64,000 nt of DNA, taken from a virus. Shown one piece after another: positions 4,838 through 59,326 of the stretch (the first letter of the stretch is position 1; each line of letters opens with the position of its first letter). The notes below the pieces were generated by a model. That model worked only from the letters and a program-made list of their open reading frames with translations. It was not told the origin of the DNA and made no database searches. The stretch spans positions 32,001 to 96,000 of the IMG/VR virus record IMGVR_UViG_3300045988_119718; one strand, given 5' to 3'. The position numbers were made by a program, and so were the translations under genes.

Positions 4838-4953
4838 TTATAAAATATTCTCCTTTCTTTAAAACCGATTAAAAATTACTATAAAGTTCTAAAAAATAAA
4901 TAGCAAAAAATAATAGAGTAGCACATATGTGCTACTCTATTATTACTTTTTTT

Positions 4954-7581: not shown

Positions 7582-7783
7582 CCCCTTCTATAAGAACTTT
7601 AGAATCAGGATATCTAATATTATCTCTACTTACTAAAATAGCAGTATATACTTTAGGAGATCCACGTACTATTACAGTACCGAATCTAGGTTCTACGGTT
7701 CCTCTTGATTTCTCAATCTCAATGATTTTATCATGTTGGGTTTGAGAGAAGATGAAAACTCTATAATATATATTATTCGTCAT
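7538..7783 (-). CDS. Hypothetical protein (81 aa)
   Basis: ORF overlapping neighbours at both ends in operon-like arrangement. No motif. Confidence 0.3.
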   Translation of the reverse strand: MTNNIYYRVFIFSQTQHDKIIEIEKSRGTVEPRFGTVIVRGSPKVYTAILVSRDNIRYPDSKVLIEGDVRNIKFTKGSLGI

Positions 7784-10960: not shown

Positions 10961-11079
10961 AATTACTTCCTCCTTAAAATAACTTATAAAAATGATATAA
11001 ATATAACCACGATAATAACCTTTTGTTATCATCATGATTATAATATATCATTATAATAACGTTTAAGATGTTTTAAATT

Positions 11080-15870: not shown

Positions 15871-15934
15871 GTTTCTTCTCCTTTTCTAATAATAAAATCT
15901 ATTAAAGTAACTTCAATACTATAATATATATTTA

Positions 15935-20974: not shown

Positions 20975-21065
20975 GATATTTCACTTCCTTTCTAAAATTA
21001 ATAACTTGTTAAACTAAATTTCTAATTTAAAACTTCATAATTATAATATATAACTTAAGCTAGTA

Positions 21066-21833
21066 TTAACTTTCTCTTCTAACTTTATTATTATTTCTAA
21101 TATCAGAAGTATAAGGTAGCATATAACTATCCTTAATAGTAATAAGATTGCTCATAACACCTGCACCTAACAGATATACATTCAATGTATTTCTAGCAGT
21201 AGAGTCTGTTTTAGAAACTTCTACATCATTTAACGAAACCATATTCTTTTCAGCAATCGTAGAATAGAACTCATCCTTAGCTTTTACTGTATCTGCTCTA
21301 TAAGTAGCTAATTCTCTCATGGTATTAGATAAACCCATTACAGCAAGACATTCCATTTCTCTATCAGATGTATTACCATTCTTATCTTTATTGATTAATC
21401 TACCACTCTTCATATTTCTTTCATCAGTATTAATAGACATAGAGTTCTTTTTAGCTAAGAACTGCTTCATCTTCTTCAATGGAGCATAGACAACTAATGC
21501 TTCATAATTAGTCTTTACTGGCTTACCATCATTACTGGTATATATAAATGGTAAATATACTTTTTCCATCAAAGGTACATTTAAAGTTTTAGCCGCTTTT
21601 TCTATTTGATACATCTTTGGTTCAATATCAAACAATTTCATTTGAAACTTCAGTGGAAATTCTTGTTTAAAATATTCATAGAACTGTTTATCAGACATAG
21701 AAGCAAACTTCTTTTTATACCAAGAACTATTTGCATTGGATGGGTCTAATATATCCATAATCTTATAAATAAGATTCTCTACTTCTTTTCTAGCTTTTTT
21801 TATATTCTGTTGTGATTCTAATACAGCTTCCAT
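21066..21833 (-). CDS. Hypothetical protein (255 aa)
   Basis: ORF with balanced composition. No motif. Confidence 0.5.
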   Translation of the reverse strand: MEAVLESQQNIKKARKEVENLIYKIMDILDPSNANSSWYKKKFASMSDKQFYEYFKQEFPLKFQMKLFDIEPKMYQIEKAAKTLNVPLMEKVYLPFIYTSNDGKPVKTNYEALVVYAPLKKMKQFLAKKNSMSINTDERNMKSGRLINKDKNGNTSDREMECLAVMGLSNTMRELATYRADTVKAKDEFYSTIAEKNMVSLNDVEVSKTDSTARNTLNVYLLGAGVMSNLITIKDSYMLPYTSDIRNNNKVRRES

Positions 21834-22000
21834 ATTATCACCTCATAAAACGAATACCAATTATTTTTATGTTTTTAGAATTAAGATGCTCACTATTTTT
21901 AAAAAAATAATTACGATATAACAATATAGTGAAGACAAAAATATATTTACCCCAATCTCATTCTATGTCTTCACTTTCTTACAACTTCCCATAATAATAA

Positions 22001-22040
22001 GTATATAACATCTAGCTTATATAAGCTAGATGTTATATAC
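22001..22040. promoter_or_regulatory. Perfect 40-bp palindrome (GTATATAACATCTAGCTTAT|ATAAGCTAGATGTTATATAC) 32 nt upstream of the plus-strand HExxH gene
   Basis: Direct reading: each half is the exact reverse complement of the other. Lies in the divergent intergenic region between 21066..21833(-) and 22072..23166(+). Confidence 0.6.
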
Positions 22041-22071
22041 CGTTGATAACTTTTATGTAAGAGGTGATAAA

Positions 22072-23166
22072 ATGAAAACTTATAATGAAGCATATGTATT
22101 TAAAAAACCTAGAACGTTATTAACCATTGAAAATGAAATAAGAAAAATAAAAATTAAATGGGAAGATAAAATAGATCCAAAAACTGGATCTACTATAAAT
22201 AAAGAAGATAAACCAAAACTTATAAAAGATTTAAGATCATTATGTAAAATTACATATAGAGAATTAGTTAAAGAATTTAACTTTGGTAAAAAGTTTGATT
22301 TTCTTGTAGAAATAGATGATATTGTAAATGCTTGGTCTAGTGATTTTACTTATAAAAACATAGAGTTATCTAACTATAAAAATATTATAGAAATATCTCC
22401 TGATAAGAGAATGAGATTTAAAAATAGAGATATTTGTAATGCTACAGTAACTTTTACTACAGATATTATATTCAATAAAGAAATGAAAGCTGATTACTTA
22501 GTAGCTATTATGCTGCATGAAATAGGTCATATATTTAGTTTCTTATTCTTCAAATTAAATGCTGAATTAAATCTTTTGCAAAATATTTTATTTAATAAAT
22601 TGACTGATAAAGAACTTGTAGAGAAATATAATAATCTTAATAAAAAAGAACAAAGAAAAACTGATAACAAAGCAAATGCTTTAGGTGTATATTTTTTCGA
22701 TAATATGGATTCTCAAGAAGGTGAAAAGTTTGCAGATCACTTTGCGGCATATTATGGATATGGATATGAACTAGCTCAAGGCTTAGCTTTATTCTTTAAA
22801 ATTAATGGGTATATGAAACCAGAAGGGGTATTAAACACATTAACTTTCGATTTAAATTTAGTTTTAACTGATTTATTGGTAAACAACTATCCTAATACTT
22901 TTAATAGATTAAACTATATTCTTAACGCTATGAAGAGAGAATTAAAATACAACAAATCTCTTACCAAAAAACAAAAACAAGAATTATTAGAAAAAATAAA
23001 TAATATCAATAAGCTTAATGCTGAGTTGTATAATACTAAACATTCTAGAACTCCATATGGATTATTACGCAATGTAATATATTCAAATAAAGTAGGTCAA
23101 ACTAAAGACTTAGATAATAGATACAATCAGTTATTAGATGATTATGTAGATAAGAAATTGTTTTAA
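22072..23166 (+). CDS. HExxH zinc-metallopeptidase-like protein (364 aa)
   Basis: Motif AIMLHEIGHIFSF. Start at MKTYNEAY with RBS TAAGAGGTGATAAA. Lone plus-strand gene in a minus-strand block. Confidence 0.55.
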   Translation: MKTYNEAYVFKKPRTLLTIENEIRKIKIKWEDKIDPKTGSTINKEDKPKLIKDLRSLCKITYRELVKEFNFGKKFDFLVEIDDIVNAWSSDFTYKNIELSNYKNIIEISPDKRMRFKNRDICNATVTFTTDIIFNKEMKADYLVAIMLHEIGHIFSFLFFKLNAELNLLQNILFNKLTDKELVEKYNNLNKKEQRKTDNKANALGVYFFDNMDSQEGEKFADHFAAYYGYGYELAQGLALFFKINGYMKPEGVLNTLTFDLNLVLTDLLVNNYPNTFNRLNYILNAMKRELKYNKSLTKKQKQELLEKINNINKLNAELYNTKHSRTPYGLLRNVIYSNKVGQTKDLDNRYNQLLDDYVDKKLF

Positions 23167-23180
23167 ATAAAAAAAAGAAA

Positions 23181-23232
23181 GGTTAGCAAATGAGACTAAC
23201 CGTAACTAGCTAATGAGACTAGTTTACTTTTT
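23181..23232 (+). terminator. Tandem-hairpin rho-independent terminator
   Basis: ggttagcaaatgagactaacc and actagctaatgagactagt followed by ttacttttt. Confidence 0.6.
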
Positions 23233-23323
23233 CTTCGGAATTTTGTGCTTACTATGTCCTTATGCATTCAGACAAAAGAATGCATTTGACTCTTCGGCAC
23301 CCGTAGTAGCTCACCATGAGTGA

Positions 23324-23539
23324 TCATACATCATGATCGTTCATGGTGTTCAGTGCAGCCACATACATGACTACATTAGCCATGTAGTCATGTGCATGTT
23401 CGAGGTCGATGAAGGAACCATCGTTAGCCTCGAGCTGAGCCAAAATGCTATTAAGGCTACTAATAGCACATTTGGTTTCGCACTTAGCTATCTTGAGATT
23501 TTTGAGTTTCAGCTTCTCAAGATCTACGGAGTTTGCCAT
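23324..23539 (-). CDS. Hypothetical small protein (~71 aa)
   Basis: Start moved to MANSVDLEK with RBS AAAGGAGGTGACTATAAT. Region G+C-richer than surroundings. Confidence 0.45.
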   Translation of the reverse strand: MANSVDLEKLKLKNLKIAKCETKCAISSLNSILAQLEANDGSFIDLEHAHDYMANVVMYVAALNTMNDHDV

Positions 23540-23624
23540 ATTATAGTCACCTCCTTTTCTAATAAAATACAACTATGAATATGGATTCACTATAATATTA
23601 TATAAGTATAGAAATATAATATTA

Positions 23625-23672
23625 CAAAATTTAGAGACTGGTATATACCAGTCTCTAAATCATTTTTATTTA
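23625..23672. terminator. Bidirectional terminator (14-bp perfect stem tttagagactggtatataccagtctctaaa)
   Basis: Perfect palindrome flanked by T-runs on both strands. Confidence 0.65.
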
Positions 23673-26523: not shown

Positions 26524-26578
26524 CTAAAAATAACGGTATATACCCCTAGGCGATAGGACACGCCTAGGGGTATATACT
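26524..26578 (-). terminator. Strong rho-independent terminator (17-bp G+C-rich perfect stem)
   Basis: gtatatacccctaggcg-ataggaca-cgcctaggggtatatac followed by ttattttt on the minus strand, after the topoisomerase medium subunit. Confidence 0.8.
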
Positions 26579-29732: not shown

Positions 29733-30008
29733 TCAACACAATAGTGAGGGATTTAGATTATACTGCTTTCGTTTTGCACGATCACATATTCGCATGCCTG
29801 TATAAATTTCTTGGCATGGCTTATCCGTCACATTGAGTATAGAATATGCAAAGTCATTATTAAATGATTTATTCATTCTAATAAAGCTGTCTTTTATGGA
29901 TTTCATATTCTCTTTTGACGGATTAATGATATACTCGTCAATAAAATGATAGCACTCGTCTTTATCATTGTAAACAAATCTAACGAGTTTTTTAAGATGA
30001 TTATTCAT
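29733..30008 (-). CDS. Small paralog 2 of tandem family (91 aa)
   Basis: Paralogous to neighbours (YHFIDEYI...NDFAYSILNV...RICDRAKRK). RBS GATAGGAGGAATTC. 5'-UTR hairpin upstream. Confidence 0.55.
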   Translation of the reverse strand: MNNHLKKLVRFVYNDKDECYHFIDEYIINPSKENMKSIKDSFIRMNKSFNNDFAYSILNVTDKPCQEIYTGMRICDRAKRKQYNLNPSLLC

Positions 30009-30026
30009 AATTGAATTCCTCCTATC

Positions 30027-30058
30027 ATCCTTCCAATAGTTGCCTCTATTGGAAGGAT
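30027..30058 (-). promoter_or_regulatory. 5'-UTR hairpin (11-bp perfect stem) abutting the RBS of paralog 2
   Basis: atccttccaatagttgcctctattggaaggat on the plus strand. On the minus strand it ends 3 nt before GATAGGAGG. Confidence 0.45.
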
Positions 30059-30116
30059 AAATAAAAATATTTTAATGGATTAATTATCCATAGTTATAAT
30101 ATATAATTTAAACAAT

Positions 30117-30185
30117 ATTTATCTAGTACCTCATATAAGGTACTAGATAAACTTTTGATTTAAGTAGGTGTATGAATAACTAATA
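30117..30185. repeat. Conserved ~70-bp intergenic element, copy A
   Basis: Near-identical to 30552..30620. Contains the 24-nt near-perfect palindrome ctagtacctcatataaggtactag (one mismatch), then aaacttttgatttaagtaggtgtATGaataacTAA. Confidence 0.7.
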
Positions 30186-30189
30186 TTAT

Positions 30190-30465
30190 TTATTTCTTTG
30201 ATATAAAATGTTTATCTTTACGATCACAAATTCTAGTTTTAGTATAGATTCTATTCTTAGGAATATCATGTATACCTATTAAACTAAATGCAAAATCATT
30301 ATTATTTTTATTTAATCTAATGAATTCATCACGTATCGATTGTATTGGAGTTAGATTTAAATCAACTATAAAGTTTTCTACTAAATGATAGCACTTATTG
30401 TCATCATCATAATGATATTTTGCTAACCGTTTTAAATTAGAAAAATTTGTTAAATTATTTGTCAT
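30190..30465 (-). CDS. Small paralog 1 of tandem family (91 aa)
   Basis: YHLVENFI...NDFAFSLIGI...RICDRKDKH. RBS AAAAGGAGGAATTT. TATATAAT upstream. Confidence 0.55.
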   Translation of the reverse strand: MTNNLTNFSNLKRLAKYHYDDDNKCYHLVENFIVDLNLTPIQSIRDEFIRLNKNNNDFAFSLIGIHDIPKNRIYTKTRICDRKDKHFISKK

Positions 30466-30551
30466 AATAAATTCCTCCTTTTATCTTTTCAAATATAGAG
30501 ATAATAAAATATTTGATTTACTCATAAATATATTATATAACTGAAAAAGTG

Positions 30552-30620
30552 TATTATCCAGTACCTCATATGAGGTACTGGATAAACTTTTGATTTAGGA
30601 GGTGTATGAACAACTAAATA
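30552..30620. repeat. Conserved ~70-bp intergenic element, copy B
   Basis: tattatccagtacctcatatgaggtactggataaacttttgatttaggaggtgtATGaacaacTAA. Contains the perfect 24-bp palindrome CCAGTACCTCATATGAGGTACTGG. Confidence 0.7.
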
Positions 30621-30623
30621 TAT

Positions 30624-31728: not shown

Positions 31729-34407
31729 TTACAGTGTATGTTTTACCCTATCATTAGTTTCAGAAATTTTACCTTTATTAAACTTACGATAATCAGTGGT
31801 GATATAACCAGTAACTCTACGGAGTCTCTTAATATCATCAGAACCACATGCAGGGCAATGCTCTTCAATTTCTCCACTGAATCCACAATGATTGCATGTA
31901 TCAATAGGGAAATTAATAGCAAAGTATGGAATACGCTCATTATTCATAGCATAGTTAATAATCTTTTCTACAGCTCTAGGATTATTAATTACACCAGAAT
32001 TAAGTTCAATGTAAGTAATGCATCCACCAGTACACATCCATGTGAAATTAGATTCTGTGTCAATCTTATCTCTAATAGAAATATTTTCATAAACTGGTAC
32101 ATGGCAAGAATTAGTAAGATAATCTCTGTCGCAAACATTCTTAATCTTACCAAACTTCTTTTGTAATTTAGTTGCTAATGTATAACATGTACTCTCGGAT
32201 GGAGAACTGTATGCGGAGAAGTTCAAATGATATTTTTCTGTATTCTCTTTAGCTCTATCATAGATAGTCTTAATTACTTTTTTAGCAAATTCCATTACTT
32301 TCTTATCTTGATGGAAGTATTTACCATACATTGCATAGCAAGCATTAGCTAATCCGATGTACCCAAGAGCTTGTGAACCATGCTTCATTGATTCTTTAAC
32401 TCCAAAGAATAATGCTTTATCTGAATCAGCAATAGTACCATTATTGTACATAAAAGAACCGGCTTTAATAGACTGAGAGCAAATATATTTATATCTATCT
32501 AAGAGTTCTTTAGTTGCTAAATCAAGCATATGATTTAATTCTTTAAAGAATCCTTCTTCATCTGGAGTATCTCGTTCACCTAAGCAAATACCATGCTCAA
32601 TACCGATATATGGAAGGTTAATAGTAACTGGGGTTACATTACCTCTACCAAGTTTATTATATCCCATGCCATTTACATCGTTACCAATTAATGTTCTGCA
32701 ACCCATAGTTGCCATCTCAGTATCAGGGTTGTAATTCCATTTTGGATTTGGGTAAGATATATGAATTACTGCTAAATCACTGTAATCAGAAATATGCTTC
32801 TTATGAATATCATACCCAGCCGATTCTGTAGTAATATAAATCTTTTCAATATTACCAAGATCATTAATAGTATAGCTGATATAATAGAGTCTAGTATAAT
32901 GATCACTTTCTCTTCTATTATAATCATTATTACTGCAATTAGAATCTTTAATTAAGAATCTATCTTTATGATTAACCAATTTAATAGTTACTTCTTTATG
33001 GTTGGCAATAACGTCAGCATTATTGCGTGCAATGACTTTCTTAATGAAAGCACCAAGAGTTGTATGTTCTTCTACAGTCTTCTTTTTAAGTTTATCCATA
33101 TAATCGAAGTCTGTTCTAATCATTACTTCATCATTAGAATCTGCCGCTTCGTATTCTTTATTAATAAACTTAATTGGATGCAAATCGGCTTTATTAGAAA
33201 TCCAATCACCATTAGCAAAGTTAGGGTAAATTCTCTTAGTTAATGATTTAATAGCAAGCTTCTTCAAATCATAATTAGGAGTATACACTCTATCATTAAC
33301 TTCTTTTTTATTTACAAAAATAGAAATTGGGAAGATAGAAGTAGAATGATTTTTACCAATACCATCAATAGATGCTTTTAAGCACCATTCTGTAACTTTT
33401 CTACCTTCAAATGAAGTATCCAAACCAAAATTAATAGAAGTAAATGGTACTTGACTGCCAGCTCTGGATTCCAATGTATTAAGGTTATGGTATAAAGCCT
33501 GAGTAGACTGTAAACCTTCTTTTTCAAGAGATTCCATAGCAAACATATACGCCATTCTATTAAAGGCTTTAAAGATGTTCCATTCTGCTGAGATAGATGC
33601 AGTTTCAATATTGAATCCATGGTTTGCAGTAAATGTATCCCAATCACCAGGATTACCAAACCAATGTAAACCATTCTTATAGTGTTTAATGAATGACTTT
33701 CTTACATATGGAGCTAAATGTCTATCAATAGCATTATCAGCTACACCACCAAACTGACACTGAGACTGAATCTGGAAGATTACAGCTAATAACTGGCATG
33801 CAGTAGAGAAACAAGATGCTGGTCTTACATCACCATTTCTAGCTTCAAATCCATTACCCAATAATCTAGGAATATCAGCAAATAAGCAGTTATGCTCACC
33901 AATAGTATATTCAGATAAATCATGAATATATAATCTACCTTCATTATATGCTTCAGTAATTTCAGGATCAATCAAATCATTTAATGCGATTTCTTTTTGA
34001 ATCAGATTAGCTGATTCATTCTTTCTACCACCGAAAGAATACTCATCAATATTAGCATTAGAGTTCTGTACATTAGAGCAATTAAGAATCTTCTTAATGT
34101 TAATCATTGTAGCAGATTTTCTGTTTCTAATGATATTTCTCTGGTTTCTATAAGTAATATACTCTTTAGCAACTTTAGGAAGTTTTTTCATTAACTTCTC
34201 TTCTACAATATCTTGAATATCTTCTACTCCTGGAATAGACTTATTAGCTTTATTAACTTCTTTAACTACTTGGGTAGTAACGTTAGATGCTTCTTTTTCA
34301 TCTACCATGTCTACTGACTTCATAGCTTTCAAAATTGCATTTGTAATTTTATCTTTATTAAAGTCTACAATACTTCCATCACGTTTTTCAATCTTTTTAA
34401 TAGCCAT
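31729..34407 (-). CDS. nrdD: Anaerobic (class III) ribonucleoside-triphosphate reductase
   Basis: C-terminal [18 protein letters not shown] zinc ribbon and glycine-radical motif RVTGYIT. 892 aa, which is long for the family. Confidence 0.85.
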
Positions 34408-38721: not shown

Positions 38722-38796
38722 TTTTTACCTCCTTTAGTATAAAACACAATAAACCTTCAATGATATAATATATAATTATTTTTAAAAATACTTGTC

Positions 38797-46231: not shown

Positions 46232-46308
46232 AATGTTTATTCCTCCTTAAAAAACACTACTATAATAAAATACGTCATAATTATAATATACAATTTGAGG
46301 TGATATTA

Positions 46309-46677
46309 ATGATTAATAACCCTAATGTACAAGATACCGAGATAGCTATCTTACTGACTACTTGCAATAAGTATGAACCAGGAGAACAAGTTTTTAGAAT
46401 GCAGTCTTTAACTGGGTTAAAAGATAATACTAATAATATAAGTAGAATTAGTTTAAGTAAAACTAATATCTTAAATAAGAATACTGGTAATCTACCTCTA
46501 GGAGATGTAGGTATAGCATCTGCAATAAAGCTTAAAGTTCCTGTAGAAGTTTCAAGACGATACCCTCTTAAATTTATACCTCCTGGAACTAGATTCATAG
46601 TAAGTTTTACAAGTAGTGATATTACTAAACCAGTTATTATAGGAGGAGAATTCTATGGCAACGACAGTAATAGTTGA
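46309..46677 (+). CDS. Hypothetical protein (~122 aa)
   Basis: Start placed at the ATG 5 nt after GAGGTGA. The antisense ORF 46281..46598 is rejected. Confidence 0.45.
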   Translation: MINNPNVQDTEIAILLTTCNKYEPGEQVFRMQSLTGLKDNTNNISRISLSKTNILNKNTGNLPLGDVGIASAIKLKVPVEVSRRYPLKFIPPGTRFIVSFTSSDITKPVIIGGEFYGNDSNS

Positions 46678-47101
46678 TGGTTCTACCAATCCAATGTATT
46701 CTCATACATTAGATGAATTTAAAGCTGCATATAATAACCGAAGTGTAGTACCGATTTATGAAAGCTTTTGTTATCAAGAACAGTCAGGTGGAATAAAATA
46801 TGTAGTGAAAGATGTACTAGACGATTATATGTATGAGCTAAAGAAGTTAGCTATAAATATAGAATTAACTAATGATGAATTAGTTAAGTACAATTATAAA
46901 CCAAAACTGTTATCTGCTGATATATATGGTTTGACAGATTTCTATTATTTGATATTATTACTAAATGGGATATGTAATGTAAAAGAATTCCATAATATCA
47001 ATCCATTAAAACTCATACCAGCTGATACTTTAGGGAACTATTTATCATCTATACTAACAAATGAATCTAAAAATATAAAAAGATTTAATTCTTATCATTA
47101 A
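46655..47101 (+). CDS. Hypothetical protein (148 aa)
   Basis: ORF overlapping the upstream gene by 23 nt. Followed by a terminator. Confidence 0.45.
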   Translation: MATTVIVDGSTNPMYSHTLDEFKAAYNNRSVVPIYESFCYQEQSGGIKYVVKDVLDDYMYELKKLAINIELTNDELVKYNYKPKLLSADIYGLTDFYYLILLLNGICNVKEFHNINPLKLIPADTLGNYLSSILTNESKNIKRFNSYH

Positions 47102-47112
47102 AATCCAAATTA

Positions 47113-47155
47113 TTACAAGATAGCTATATAGCTATCTTGTAATATAATGTTTTGA
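47113..47155. terminator. Bidirectional terminator between convergent genes (13-bp perfect palindrome)
   Basis: ttacaagatagctatatagctatcttgtaa followed by tataatgttttgag. Confidence 0.7.
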
Positions 47156-47160
47156 GATAA

Positions 47161-48750
47161 TTAGAATTCGATAGAATCTACACAGTCGTATTTCTTATTC
47201 TTAAGAATCTTAACAAGAGCTTTAAATGGATCAAGCTCATTATTTACTACCATATTCACCATGCTACTAGAGAAACCAGATAACAAAGTTACTCCATTCT
47301 CATTAGTTCTCAAAGGAACATTCTGATCAGCGTAAATAGAAGTATTCCAGAAAATCAGTTTAGGCATCTTATAACCATGTTTTTCATATTTTTCAATGAG
47401 GTATTCAAACAAAGATTGATCTGGTGTAGCACCACATGCATAATCAAATTGCATATCAGATACGATAACAATTCTTTCTGGCATATCTTCTTGTGCAATC
47501 TTATTCTTAATAGCAGTATTAAGAATCAGATTGAATACTTTTTCGATATTAGTATTACCACAATCGTCATATTCACCCAGAATCTTAAGCTTAGCACAAA
47601 GATGATCAGTAGAAGTAGTCAAATCTACAATCTTTGGTTTGCTAGAGAATGTAATGAATTTGTTTTTGAATTCACCAGTATTAAACTGAGACAAGAAGAT
47701 ACAAATAGAATCCCCAATATCCATCGAAGTGAGAGAAGAACTATGTGAAATACAGTTTACCATAGAATAAGAACCATCTCTTACTACGAGAGTATTAGAC
47801 AGCTTCGCTGGAGTTGGCAGATTCTTCCACAGTTGTTCAAGAGAATCATCTTTAGTAACATTAAACCCGTGAGACATATCGCAATGTTCTCTGTATTTAT
47901 GAATGATATCATACATAAACAAAGTACCAGCATTAATAGTAGTTTTACCTTCTTTAAGTTTAGAAAGATAATCTTTTCTACGCTCAGTATCATGCCGTAA
48001 AAATGCATCTTTATACTTCAAGTTGGCATAGCTAGGAACACGTTCATATTCAATTTCTTTCCAGTTATTAGCACTAGTGTCTACTTCTACCACTTTACTA
48101 TGCTTTCTCAAAATAGAAAGCATTTTTCGATACTGTTTACTAGAGAGTTTAAATTCATTAGCAATCCAATTAGCAATCAATTTAGTTTTCTTAGAAGAAG
48201 TATTAATAGAAGGCATCCATTTACCAAGTAATGAGATATGGCAATCCTCATCCAAACTTGTTGCTTTAGCACATTTCTTAATATCTTCATTAAGCTGCTT
48301 AGTAATAATAAACTTAATGCAATCTGTAATTTCTTTAGACGTATCTTTCAATGCATACCAAATATAGATTAAGTCATCCCATCTACCAAAATCATTTTGG
48401 ATATTGCATTTCTCAATAATTTCAAGAGCTACTTTTGGATATTTCATAGCAAAATCTACGAATAAAACTCTAAATGAGTTTCTTTCACCAGCACCATTCT
48501 TAATGTCTCTCAGATAAAGCAACCATCTAATAGCCAAGTTTTTATCTTCACTATATGCTTTAGTAAAAGTATTTTCAAACTTATAAGGATTATTTCTCAA
48601 AGATGGAATATTATAATTCAAATCCAAAAGATATTCTCCAGTTGAAGCATAAGTGGTAGCACCATTTGCAGTAGTGGTTACTTCATTTAAAGTTTCTTTG
48701 TCCATCAGTTTCATAATATCAGTCATGATTCTCCTCCTAAATAAATACAT
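47161..48750 (-). CDS. Ro60-like protein (TROVE-like N-terminal region + von Willebrand A domain)
   Basis: MIDAS motif LVVRDGSYSM (DxSxS) and IVIVSDMQFD block. Both arrangement and several segments parallel Ro60/Rsr (LLAVDVSASM, FIVFTDNETF). Confidence 0.45.
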   Translation of the reverse strand: MYLFRRRIMTDIMKLMDKETLNEVTTTANGATTYASTGEYLLDLNYNIPSLRNNPYKFENTFTKAYSEDKNLAIRWLLYLRDIKNGAGERNSFRVLFVDFAMKYPKVALEIIEKCNIQNDFGRWDDLIYIWYALKDTSKEITDCIKFIITKQLNEDIKKCAKATSLDEDCHISLLGKWMPSINTSSKKTKLIANWIANEFKLSSKQYRKMLSILRKHSKVVEVDTSANNWKEIEYERVPSYANLKYKDAFLRHDTERRKDYLSKLKEGKTTINAGTLFMYDIIHKYREHCDMSHGFNVTKDDSLEQLWKNLPTPAKLSNTLVVRDGSYSMVNCISHSSSLTSMDIGDSICIFLSQFNTGEFKNKFITFSSKPKIVDLTTSTDHLCAKLKILGEYDDCGNTNIEKVFNLILNTAIKNKIAQEDMPERIVIVSDMQFDYACGATPDQSLFEYLIEKYEKHGYKMPKLIFWNTSIYADQNVPLRTNENGVTLLSGFSSSMVNMVVNNELDPFKALVKILKNKKYDCVDSIEF

Positions 48751-58773: not shown

Positions 58774-58776
58774 ATT

Positions 58777-59326
58777 ATGACAACAACTTTAAAAGGAACT
58801 ATACGGGGGGGGGGTAACCTTTAGTGCCTCTCCAGCTATAATTATACCAAAAATACACTACTACATAGCTAAAGGCTCTAGCCCATGGTATAGTAGTTAC
58901 TGGAAGGATAAGAAATTAGTTACTAATGTAGATGAATCTGTATCTGGGCAAGCTACGGTTACATGCAACACTATAACAGATACGTACTATATGTTCTTTA
59001 ACCTCTCTAATCTTACTACAATAGATTTATCTAATTTCGATACATCTAAAGTAACTGTTATGGCTGATATGTTTGCTCTTTGCTCTAATCTTACTACAAT
59101 AGATTTATCTGGCTTTGATACTTCTAAAGTAACTAATATGAGTTTTATGTTCTATAACTGTTCTAACCTTACTACTATTAAAGGCACTATAGATATGACA
59201 AATTGTGTAAGTTATCACAATATGTTCGATGGTTGTACCAAGCTTAAAGATGTTAATATTATGAATCCACCGGCAAACTTTAATGATGCTAAATTGTCTC
59301 CTTCTCAATATACCATAGCATCATAG
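58777..59326 (+). pseudogene. BspA-type LRR protein paralog, out of frame at a G10 homopolymer (candidate phase-variable gene)
   Basis: ATG at 58777 reads MTTTLKGTIRGGGNL* through G10 (58805..58814). With G9 the frame reads ...YIAKGSSPWYSSYWKDKKLVTNVDESVSGQATVTCNTITDTYYMFFNLSNLTTIDLSNFDTSKVT... to 59326. This is collinear with the N-terminus and repeats of the 755-aa LRR protein. Confidence 0.6.
58805..58814 (+). repeat. Poly-G tract (G10) inside the 5' end of the LRR paralog
   Basis: Directly visible: cggggggggggtaacc. Confidence 0.9.

Follow-up and report, generated by a model that had tools for sequence, protein, structure and literature searches.

This study concerns an exact 40-bp palindrome (22001..22040) that lies just upstream of a metallopeptidase-like (protease) gene in a 64,000-nucleotide stretch of viral DNA, positions 32,001 to 96,000 of the IMG/VR virus record IMGVR_UViG_3300045988_119718 (the whole stretch is called the window, and coordinates are counted from its first letter). 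The palindrome is probably the DNA image of a conserved RNA stem-loop, helix P2 (18-21 bp), that would act in cis after transcription has been initiated, and not the site of a dimeric repressor, as had been proposed in an earlier, sequence-only reading. The P2 structure has been kept through compensatory changes on the plus strand, inside a conserved leader that is predicted to be transcribed late, and an effect on expression of the protease is inferred.

The palindrome was confirmed as an exact 20+20 inverted repeat with zero spacer (GTATATAACATCTAGCTTAT followed directly by ATAAGCTAGATGTTATATAC). When zero-spacer palindromes were scored by arm length in 60 first-order Markov simulations of the window, the longest arm was 11 nt and none reached 12 nt, while the real window has seven palindromes with arms of at least 12 nt, the one at 22001 being the longest. 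The suspicion that it did not arise by chance is therefore borne out; it is non-random, yet one of a class. The remaining six each lie just 3′ of a gene, most have T runs along the direction of transcription, and they look like terminators, so palindromic hairpins are ordinary punctuation in the genome of the window. The genome's own terminator hairpins (e.g., 4909..4944, 23629..23660, and 47111..47144) resemble P2 in being long, perfect, and AT-rich with an ATAT or TATA centre; however, they are found 3′ of genes and mostly have runs of T4-T9, while P2 is 5′ of a gene, in its leader, and has T2 in the window. A separate hairpin after the gyrA-like gene (26536..26577) shares GTATATAC...CGTT with the leader palindrome, at the end of the latter and in its flank, either by chance or as a local copy.

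Homologs of the protease occur in metagenomes at 69-98% identity, and the window was aligned with eight syntenic relatives that carry the upstream region (lineage G1; protease 71-99% identical). A palindrome is present at the same position in all eight of these relatives, with differing sequence; its loss or degeneration in close relatives, which the sequence-only reading had named as grounds for refutation, is not seen. Its left side reads GCATTTATCATCTAGTCTAT in locus L001, ATAGTATATATCATCTAGACTAT in L003, GGTATATATCATCTAGACTATATA in L006, and GTATATGTCATCTAGCTTAT in L011. The 18 stem pairs of P2 comprise 12 that are invariant and six that are changed on both arms, with none changed on one arm only, and two adjacent compensated changes are already present in L011, the protease of which is 95% identical to that of the window. 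The sole mismatched cell in the alignment, an A·A in L004, looks like an intermediate between A-T and T-A. Overall, 99.2% of the P2 cells are paired, compared with 25-47% when the partners are slid by one to three columns. The centre is also flexible: in L017, CTTAAAG replaces CTTATATAAG, making the centre 3 nt shorter while the arms are intact. Changes on both arms combined with a flexible centre are consistent with selection for base pairing and not for a repressor half-site. The protease gene is also present on short Logan contigs (L005, L007, L008, L009, and L010), all five of which begin within the palindrome. These assemblies evidently break at perfect palindromes, as a de Bruijn assembler is expected to do, and upstream regions are systematically lost.

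More distant relatives were collected by a profile search of 1.84 billion representative proteins, which found 340 relatives of the protease, and by a scan of IMG/VR, in which the family occupies at least 127 stretches of giant-phage contigs; 80 loci were kept, the majority from contigs ~50-340 kb long. A covariance model of the leader from the window's clade, used to find the same architecture in other lineages, located it directly upstream of the protease gene in two further lineages. In G2 (L019-L022, ~31% protein identity) the stretch at -70..-28 relative to the ATG forms an unrelated stem of 18 bp, the 7-nt loop of which (TGTATTG) is asymmetric. In G3 (L047 and L061-L069, ~24% protein identity) the stem has 10-15 bp, and it includes U·G and G·U pairs as well as a bulge, which are tolerable on the plus strand only. 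Across the three lineages, both sides are changed in 15 of 18 P2 pairs and four of seven P1 pairs (P1 being a second helix, described below), and 95-98% of cells are paired (97.8% for P2) compared with 32-63% in slid controls, although the alignment was fitted to the structural model. As judged from these alignments, the pattern across lineages indicates selection for base pairing on the plus strand.

The stem-loop is part of a larger predicted leader. The late-promoter consensus of phage AR9, determined experimentally, is A(-11)ACA-N6-T-A/G(+1) on the non-template strand (PMC7598289). In its full definition such a promoter, which serves the non-virion RNA polymerase, also has deoxyuridine in the template strand and is used late in infection by a holoenzyme that contains gp226. 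A plus-strand motif of this type precedes the palindrome and predicts a transcription start at G21931 and a 141-nt 5′ leader; the palindrome had been placed between divergent promoters, but it lies downstream of this predicted start. The AACA and TG of the promoter are invariant in every relative while the N6 is variable, and in each of the three lineages AACA-N6-T(A/G) precedes the ATG by 132-157 nt. The divergent RNA-polymerase-beta-like gene has its own late motif on the minus strand, with a predicted start site at 21862 and a 29-nt leader; in L001, L003, and L006 its AACA and TA are kept and the intervening six bases vary. Matches to sigma-70-type promoters are not enriched in the window (25 versus 29.7 expected). 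Long 5′ leaders do occur in AR9 (PMC5312081).

Helix P1 starts exactly at the predicted +1 in each lineage, with a different sequence each time: the stems are GAAGACA/UGUCUUC in G1, AGAAAU/AUUUCU in G2, and AGAGAUC/GAUUUCU in G3, the last including G·U pairs that are valid on the plus strand only. Its loop holds a C-rich CCCCAAU (21950..21956). Between the helices, ACUUCCCAU(A/G)AU is identical in G1 and G2 and occurs nowhere else in the 98 loci searched, and ACTTCCCATRAT is found once per locus, in the leader only, in both of these lineages, with a single exact copy in the window. Downstream of P2, ACUUUU is able to pair with AGAGGU in a local helix predicted by RNAalifold; this region is invariant and so offers no covariation. 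The leader as a whole has a minimum free energy of -37.5 kcal/mol, with z = -6.4 relative to shuffled versions. No Rfam family matches at its gathering score anywhere in the window, and a relaxed threshold gave just microRNA-precursor hairpins, at 18-21 bits against gathering scores of 65-150. Two other candidate features of the leader were rejected. An upstream helix complementary to the ribosome-binding site (RBS), pairing 21975..21983 with 22056..22064 in the single-sequence fold, is not conserved, the segment being deleted in L006, and a leader peptide of nine codons (ATG 21964) is not conserved either, since relatives have CTG there or another frame.

In the mechanism proposed here, transcription would begin at G21931 from the AR9-type late promoter AACA-N6-TG, and the RNA would open with the 5′-terminal stem-loop P1 and its C-rich loop. 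P1 would be followed by the pyrimidine-rich single strand ACUUCCCAUAAU, by P2, by a second pyrimidine-rich element, UAACUUUUAU, and by the RBS. P2 would then set the amount of protease in cis, on the RNA and after initiation. How it would do so is a matter for tentative preference. The favoured possibility, held with less than even confidence, is a static clamp in which P2 and the two flanking elements complementary to the RBS keep translation initiation low and stabilise the leader. Both flanking pyrimidine-rich elements are able to pair with the RBS, and the predicted pairing probability of the RBS is 0.58-1.0 in nine leaders.

Several points weigh against this account. Both the start site and the leader itself are predicted. 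Within the window's clade P2 has no G·U pair at all, so that the strand on which it acts is indistinguishable there, and arm-to-arm correction at the level of DNA could also keep a palindrome perfect. The pairing probability of the RBS is 0.91 in the window against a median of 0.68, but this ranks 28th of 33 window genes and is not distinctive; when the leader is shortened in silico by its upstream half, the RBS is not consistently freed, and the invariant elements complementary to it provide no covariation. The AR9 ortholog has a 29-nt leader without such a hairpin. None of the three sub-mechanisms considered (the clamp, termination, and processing) is well supported.

A second possibility, to which somewhat limited credence is given, is that P2 is a promoter-proximal intrinsic terminator or pause site, i.e., an attenuator, at which most late transcripts would stop to give a leader RNA of ~110 nt, while read-through, perhaps aided by an antiterminator, would give the protease mRNA. 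Phage lambda PR′-tR′ with its Q protein is an analogue, as are the small RNAs that phage 201phi2-1 derives from 5′ leaders. The 18-bp stem makes a stable stem-loop in the same style as the palindromic hairpins after genes in this genome and its relatives, a simple terminator scan flags it as terminator-like, albeit for the minus strand, and GUUUUUAAC (GUUUUU in RNA) directly follows the stem in L001, L006, and L008. Premature termination in 5′ leaders has been documented in giant phages (PMC11512511). The T run, however, is not conserved: it is T5 in L001 and L006 and T3 in L003 and in L019 of G2, but it has been lost in the window's subclade, where the longest is 2 (window and L011), and there is none after the G3 hairpin, while most hairpins 3′ of genes in the same genomes carry T4-T9. 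In addition, no antiterminator is known for AR9-like phages.

It is rather unlikely that P2 serves as a target for a double-strand-specific ribonuclease (RNase) of the RNase III type, or as a block to a 5′-3′ exonuclease, with cleavage splitting the upstream leader from the coding part and altering mRNA stability or translation. The 18-23 unbroken Watson-Crick pairs in G1 and G2, about two helical turns without wobble or bulge, would suit such an enzyme, as would the placement of the hairpin between the structured upstream leader and the RBS, and processing of this type is known from sites in phages T7 and SP82 and from the lambda N leader. Equally long perfect stems are, however, the general terminator style in these AT-rich genomes, so stem length alone cannot identify a processing site; in G3 the stem is shorter and contains both wobble pairs and a bulge, and no sequence test for RNase III sites exists.

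An improbable variant is that the segment from the promoter to the hairpin (21931 to ~22045) would be a phage small RNA released by termination or cleavage at the palindrome, the CCCCAAU and ACUUCCCAU of which would pair in trans with host or phage RBSs late in infection, with read-through giving the protease mRNA. C-rich seeds occur in the RsaE/RoxS-type small RNAs of Firmicutes; counts of C runs in the window are uninformative. Very unlikely, too, is a fail-safe terminator or insulator on the minus strand, which would halt early transcripts that run antisense across the protease gene, short of the late RNA-polymerase-subunit gene (21066..21833). The gene for the protease lies within a block of minus-strand genes mostly with the early-type motif TATATTATA, a perfect palindrome acts in both directions, and the tail UUAUUAUUAU in the window agrees with the minus direction flagged by the terminator scan; but this tail varies among relatives, reading CUAUAUUUAUGGG in L001 but UAUCAUGGG in L003, the wobble pairs of G3 favour the plus strand, and a convergent terminator pair is already present at 23181..23236.

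The least probable explanation is the original one, a DNA-level element that would be either an operator for a symmetric dimeric DNA-binding protein or a cruciform acting on the divergent late promoters. The two-fold symmetry is perfect, including the centre, in the window's clade, where there is no asymmetry of the G·U type; the distance of the palindrome to the two predicted start sites is ~70-110 bp and 140-180 bp, and HTH_17 genes are found a few genes away in some relatives. The recognition sequence, however, is not kept, since the arms co-vary and both are changed at six of 18 positions among close relatives and at 15 of 18 across lineages, where the G2 stem is unrelated; the spacing of the half-sites is not fixed, being shifted by 3 bp in L017 and spanning an asymmetric 7-nt centre in G2; the wobble pairs of G3 become A·C mismatches if the opposite strand is read; and the window has no adjacent helix-turn-helix (HTH) gene, neighbouring genes giving no HTH matches. 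The ATCTAG and CTAGAT hexamers that had been noted as recurring half-sites are at chance level (20 copies of each in the window versus ~21 expected from base composition). The search for the half-site that had been suggested, made in the 64-kb window, found no excess either: with up to three mismatches, the 13-nt half-site ACATCTAGCTTAT has 38 matches against 55.6 expected from shuffles, rarer than chance. A scan of IMG/VR with a 14-nt half-site gave just scattered single chance matches in unrelated contigs, and a search with the pattern of the palindrome core gave one chance match in an unrelated contig (L099). A cruciform appears to be disfavoured because the G·U pairs of the distant lineages work on the plus strand only.

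The protease gene that follows the leader begins at an ATG after the RBS AAGAGGTGA, 31 nt past the palindrome; the listed open reading frame (ORF) starts at 22030, an in-frame upstream ATG. The HEIGH motif reported earlier is present as H149-E150-x-x-H153. In an alignment of 32 sequences (19-81% identical to the window protein), H149, E150, H153, E218, D222, F224, G229, P274, and R279 are invariant, and the invariant residues correspond to the HExxH, E-x3-D, and P-x4-R motifs of M48; the usual His of the M48 HPxxxxR motif is Tyr in the window protein (YPNTFNR). PF01435 (Peptidase M48) is matched by 11 of the 32 relatives at E <= 0.01, with a best value of 2.4e-8, while the window protein itself has no PF01435 match at E <= 0.01 and reaches no Pfam threshold. 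The family profile aligns to Ste24p with E = 0.004. The level of membership these matches suggest is that of a distant superfamily relative of M48. Of the earlier description as ImmA/IrrE- or M48-like, the M48-type HExxH zincin has stood; ImmA/IrrE (M78, PF06114) has no Pfam match, and the neighbours are an RNA-polymerase-beta-like gene and an ORF of 82 amino acids (aa), with no HTH.

A structure model made from the 32-sequence alignment had a predicted local distance difference test (pLDDT) of 83 and a predicted template modelling score (pTM) of 0.87; one made from 10 close homologs was unusable (pLDDT 40). In a Foldseek search of BFVD, a database of predicted viral structures, the model matched the AR9 zincin A0A172JHV9 with E = 2.8e-9, and structural relatives in the phiKZ-like phages PhiPA3, Miami, Eowyn, and RP12 carry the annotation 'virion structural protein'; against the PDB the model had no significant match. 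An anti-defence role had been suggested for the protein, but nothing points to it: the family is one of giant-phage zincins, the AR9 ortholog is late, and the structural relatives are annotated as virion proteins.

The window belongs to a giant phage, and its other genes include a PhuZ-like tubulin, split RNA-polymerase beta-like genes, a UvsX-like recombinase, a DNA ligase, and a type II topoisomerase. The nearest cultured phages by RNA polymerase beta are Bacillus AR9/PBS1 (34% identity), with Staphylococcus S6-like phages and Yersinia phiR1-37 next. When the INPHARED phage collection was searched at the DNA and protein level with the locus and with the protease, no match came up; it was only the RNA polymerase beta protein that tied the window, part of an uncultivated phage, to its distant relatives AR9/PBS1. 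The motif TATATTATA precedes many minus-strand genes and resembles the AT-rich early-promoter motifs of such phages. A recurrent coding-strand motif, (T)TATATATTATA, is also found upstream of many minus-strand genes (e.g., 7762..7770, 11039..11047, 15920..15928, 21042..21050, 38764..38772, and 46282..46290) and is probably the early promoter of this phage, used by the virion RNA polymerase.

The coordinates of the features described are collected in Table 1.

Table 1. Features of the protease locus and long palindromes of the window, with positions counted from the first letter of the window except where a relative is named.
Feature	Position	Strand	Basis or remark
AR9-type late-promoter motif AACA-ATATAG-TG (AACAATATAGTG)	21920..21931	+	Motif kept in relatives
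AR9-type late-promoter motif AACATAAAAATA	21862..21873	-	Motif scan; serves RNA-polymerase-beta-like gene 21066..21833
Helix P1, 5′-terminal stem-loop GAAGACA/UGUCUUC	21931..21972	+	RNAalifold, pair counts
Single-stranded pyrimidine-rich motif ACUUCCCAUAAU	21984..21995	+	Conserved; complementary to RBS
40-bp palindrome, RNA helix P2 (18 bp + UAUA loop)	22001..22040	+	+71..+110 of predicted leader
Invariant UAACUUUUAU, then RBS AAGAGGUGA	22047..22067	+	Invariant alignment columns
Soluble M48-like zinc metallopeptidase gene, 364 aa	22072..23166	+	HEIGH 149-153, E218-x3-D222, P274, R279
Two tandem short hairpins, GGTTAG-CAAATGAGA-CTAACC and AACTAG-CTAATGAGA-CTAGTT	23181..23236	.	Flanked by A/T runs
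Zero-spacer palindromes, start (arm, nt)	22001 (20), 4909 (18), 47111 (17), 30554 (16), 23629 (16), 29501 (15), 41579 (13)		
HTH_17 inserts in relatives	L001 7470..8866; L008 1289..2311; L009 1618..3007; L010 1640..2962		

Downstream of the protease gene, the tandem hairpins at 23181..23236 have 6-bp stems and near-identical 9-nt loops (CAAATGAGA and CTAATGAGA) and lie between the convergent protease gene and 82-aa ORF. A minus-strand terminator is flagged by the scan at 23201..23181, and the hairpins probably serve as convergent terminators, both for the protease gene and for the minus-strand unit from 23324..23572. The adjacent 23240..23400 is unusually G+C-rich, with a 12-bp hairpin at 23365..23393; the 82-aa ORF (23324..23572, minus strand) extends into this stretch with its 3′ part, and no Rfam family matches there. 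In some relatives, two to three extra genes with HTH_17 domains lie between the protease gene and a 392-aa gene; these are absent from the window and L003. The protease gene had been described as the only plus-strand gene in its block, but there is a second plus-strand ORF at 46655..47101, which has an RBS and weak matches to baseplate wedge proteins and is closed by a perfect 17+17 palindrome (47111..47144) that it has in common with the convergent gene 47161..48750. Elsewhere, each copy in a small array of 91-aa paralogs (29733..30623) has a leader hairpin with CCUUCC adjoining the RBS (e.g., 30027..30058); each copy has a palindromic hairpin, too (30118..30151 and 30554..30585), and these two differ by a compensated T>C / A>G, while a mismatch in one of them reads as G·U on the minus strand. 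Ten consecutive G (58805..58814) in the intergenic gap 58774..58990, in a genome of ~30% G+C, could be a slippage-prone tract or an assembly artefact.

Taken together, the leader is a covariation-supported candidate cis-regulatory RNA of uncultivated AR9-related giant phages, and Rfam has no such family. Judging by sample names, at least part of the phage family seems to stem from human-associated samples. In these AT-rich genomes, long perfect palindromes are ordinary RNA punctuation and not operators. The results also suggest that the unusual late-promoter code AACA-N6-T A/G extends well beyond the single cultured phage group in which it has been defined to date; in that case it would become possible to predict temporal classes for giant-phage genomes from metagenomes. 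The lone opposite-strand placement of the giant-phage zincin and its late promoter are shown to be ancient.

One of the closest known systems is that of AR9 itself. Gene g051 of AR9 is annotated in GenBank as a 'zincin protease' with Pfam M48 and is a lone opposite-strand gene near gyrA; the AR9 locus in IMG/VR (L039, its identity with g051 inferred from coordinates) has a protein of low identity to that of the window, one segment matching at 34%. A late primary start site of g051 has been mapped by differential RNA sequencing (dRNA-seq), with the sequence ...AACAttttatTA, the motif AACA-N6-TA, and a 29-nt leader, and expression of the gene is 1.6, 45, and 1223 at 5, 20, and 40 min. The divergent neighbour, g052, is transcribed from a late start of its own at a distance of 40 bp. 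The AR9 gene and that of the window thus share a homologous protein, lone opposite-strand placement, the promoter motif, and a divergent late neighbour; however, g051 has its 29-nt leader and no hairpin, while the window's clade has a predicted 141-nt leader with two conserved helices. At the level of the protein, the window protease shares the HExxH, the Glu of E-x3-D, and the C-terminal P-x4-R with M48 peptidases such as Ste24, HtpX, and BepA, but it is soluble, with no membrane helices in the model, and has its own N-terminal alpha/beta domain. A zincin-like metallopeptidase has been reported as conserved and uncharacterised in 'group 1' giant phages, with virion maturation proposed as its role (PMC7824862); it is conserved in giant phages that encode multisubunit RNA polymerases, and the window protein probably belongs to the same family, for which AMR59696.1 is the accession cited there.

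For the leader, a close parallel is found in Pseudomonas phages. In giant phages, transcripts that end prematurely within 5′ leaders have been described, as has a conserved leader RNA, sRNA005 of 201phi2-1 with its phiKZ counterpart upstream of gp182 (PMC11512511). Like the leader of the window, these are conserved structured RNAs that follow a late start and lie upstream of a virion-related gene. They belong to the phiKZ-like group, however, with another gene and another sequence, and RNA 3′ ends were mapped by sequencing in that work, while the leader described here is predicted from sequence and its T run is inconsistent.

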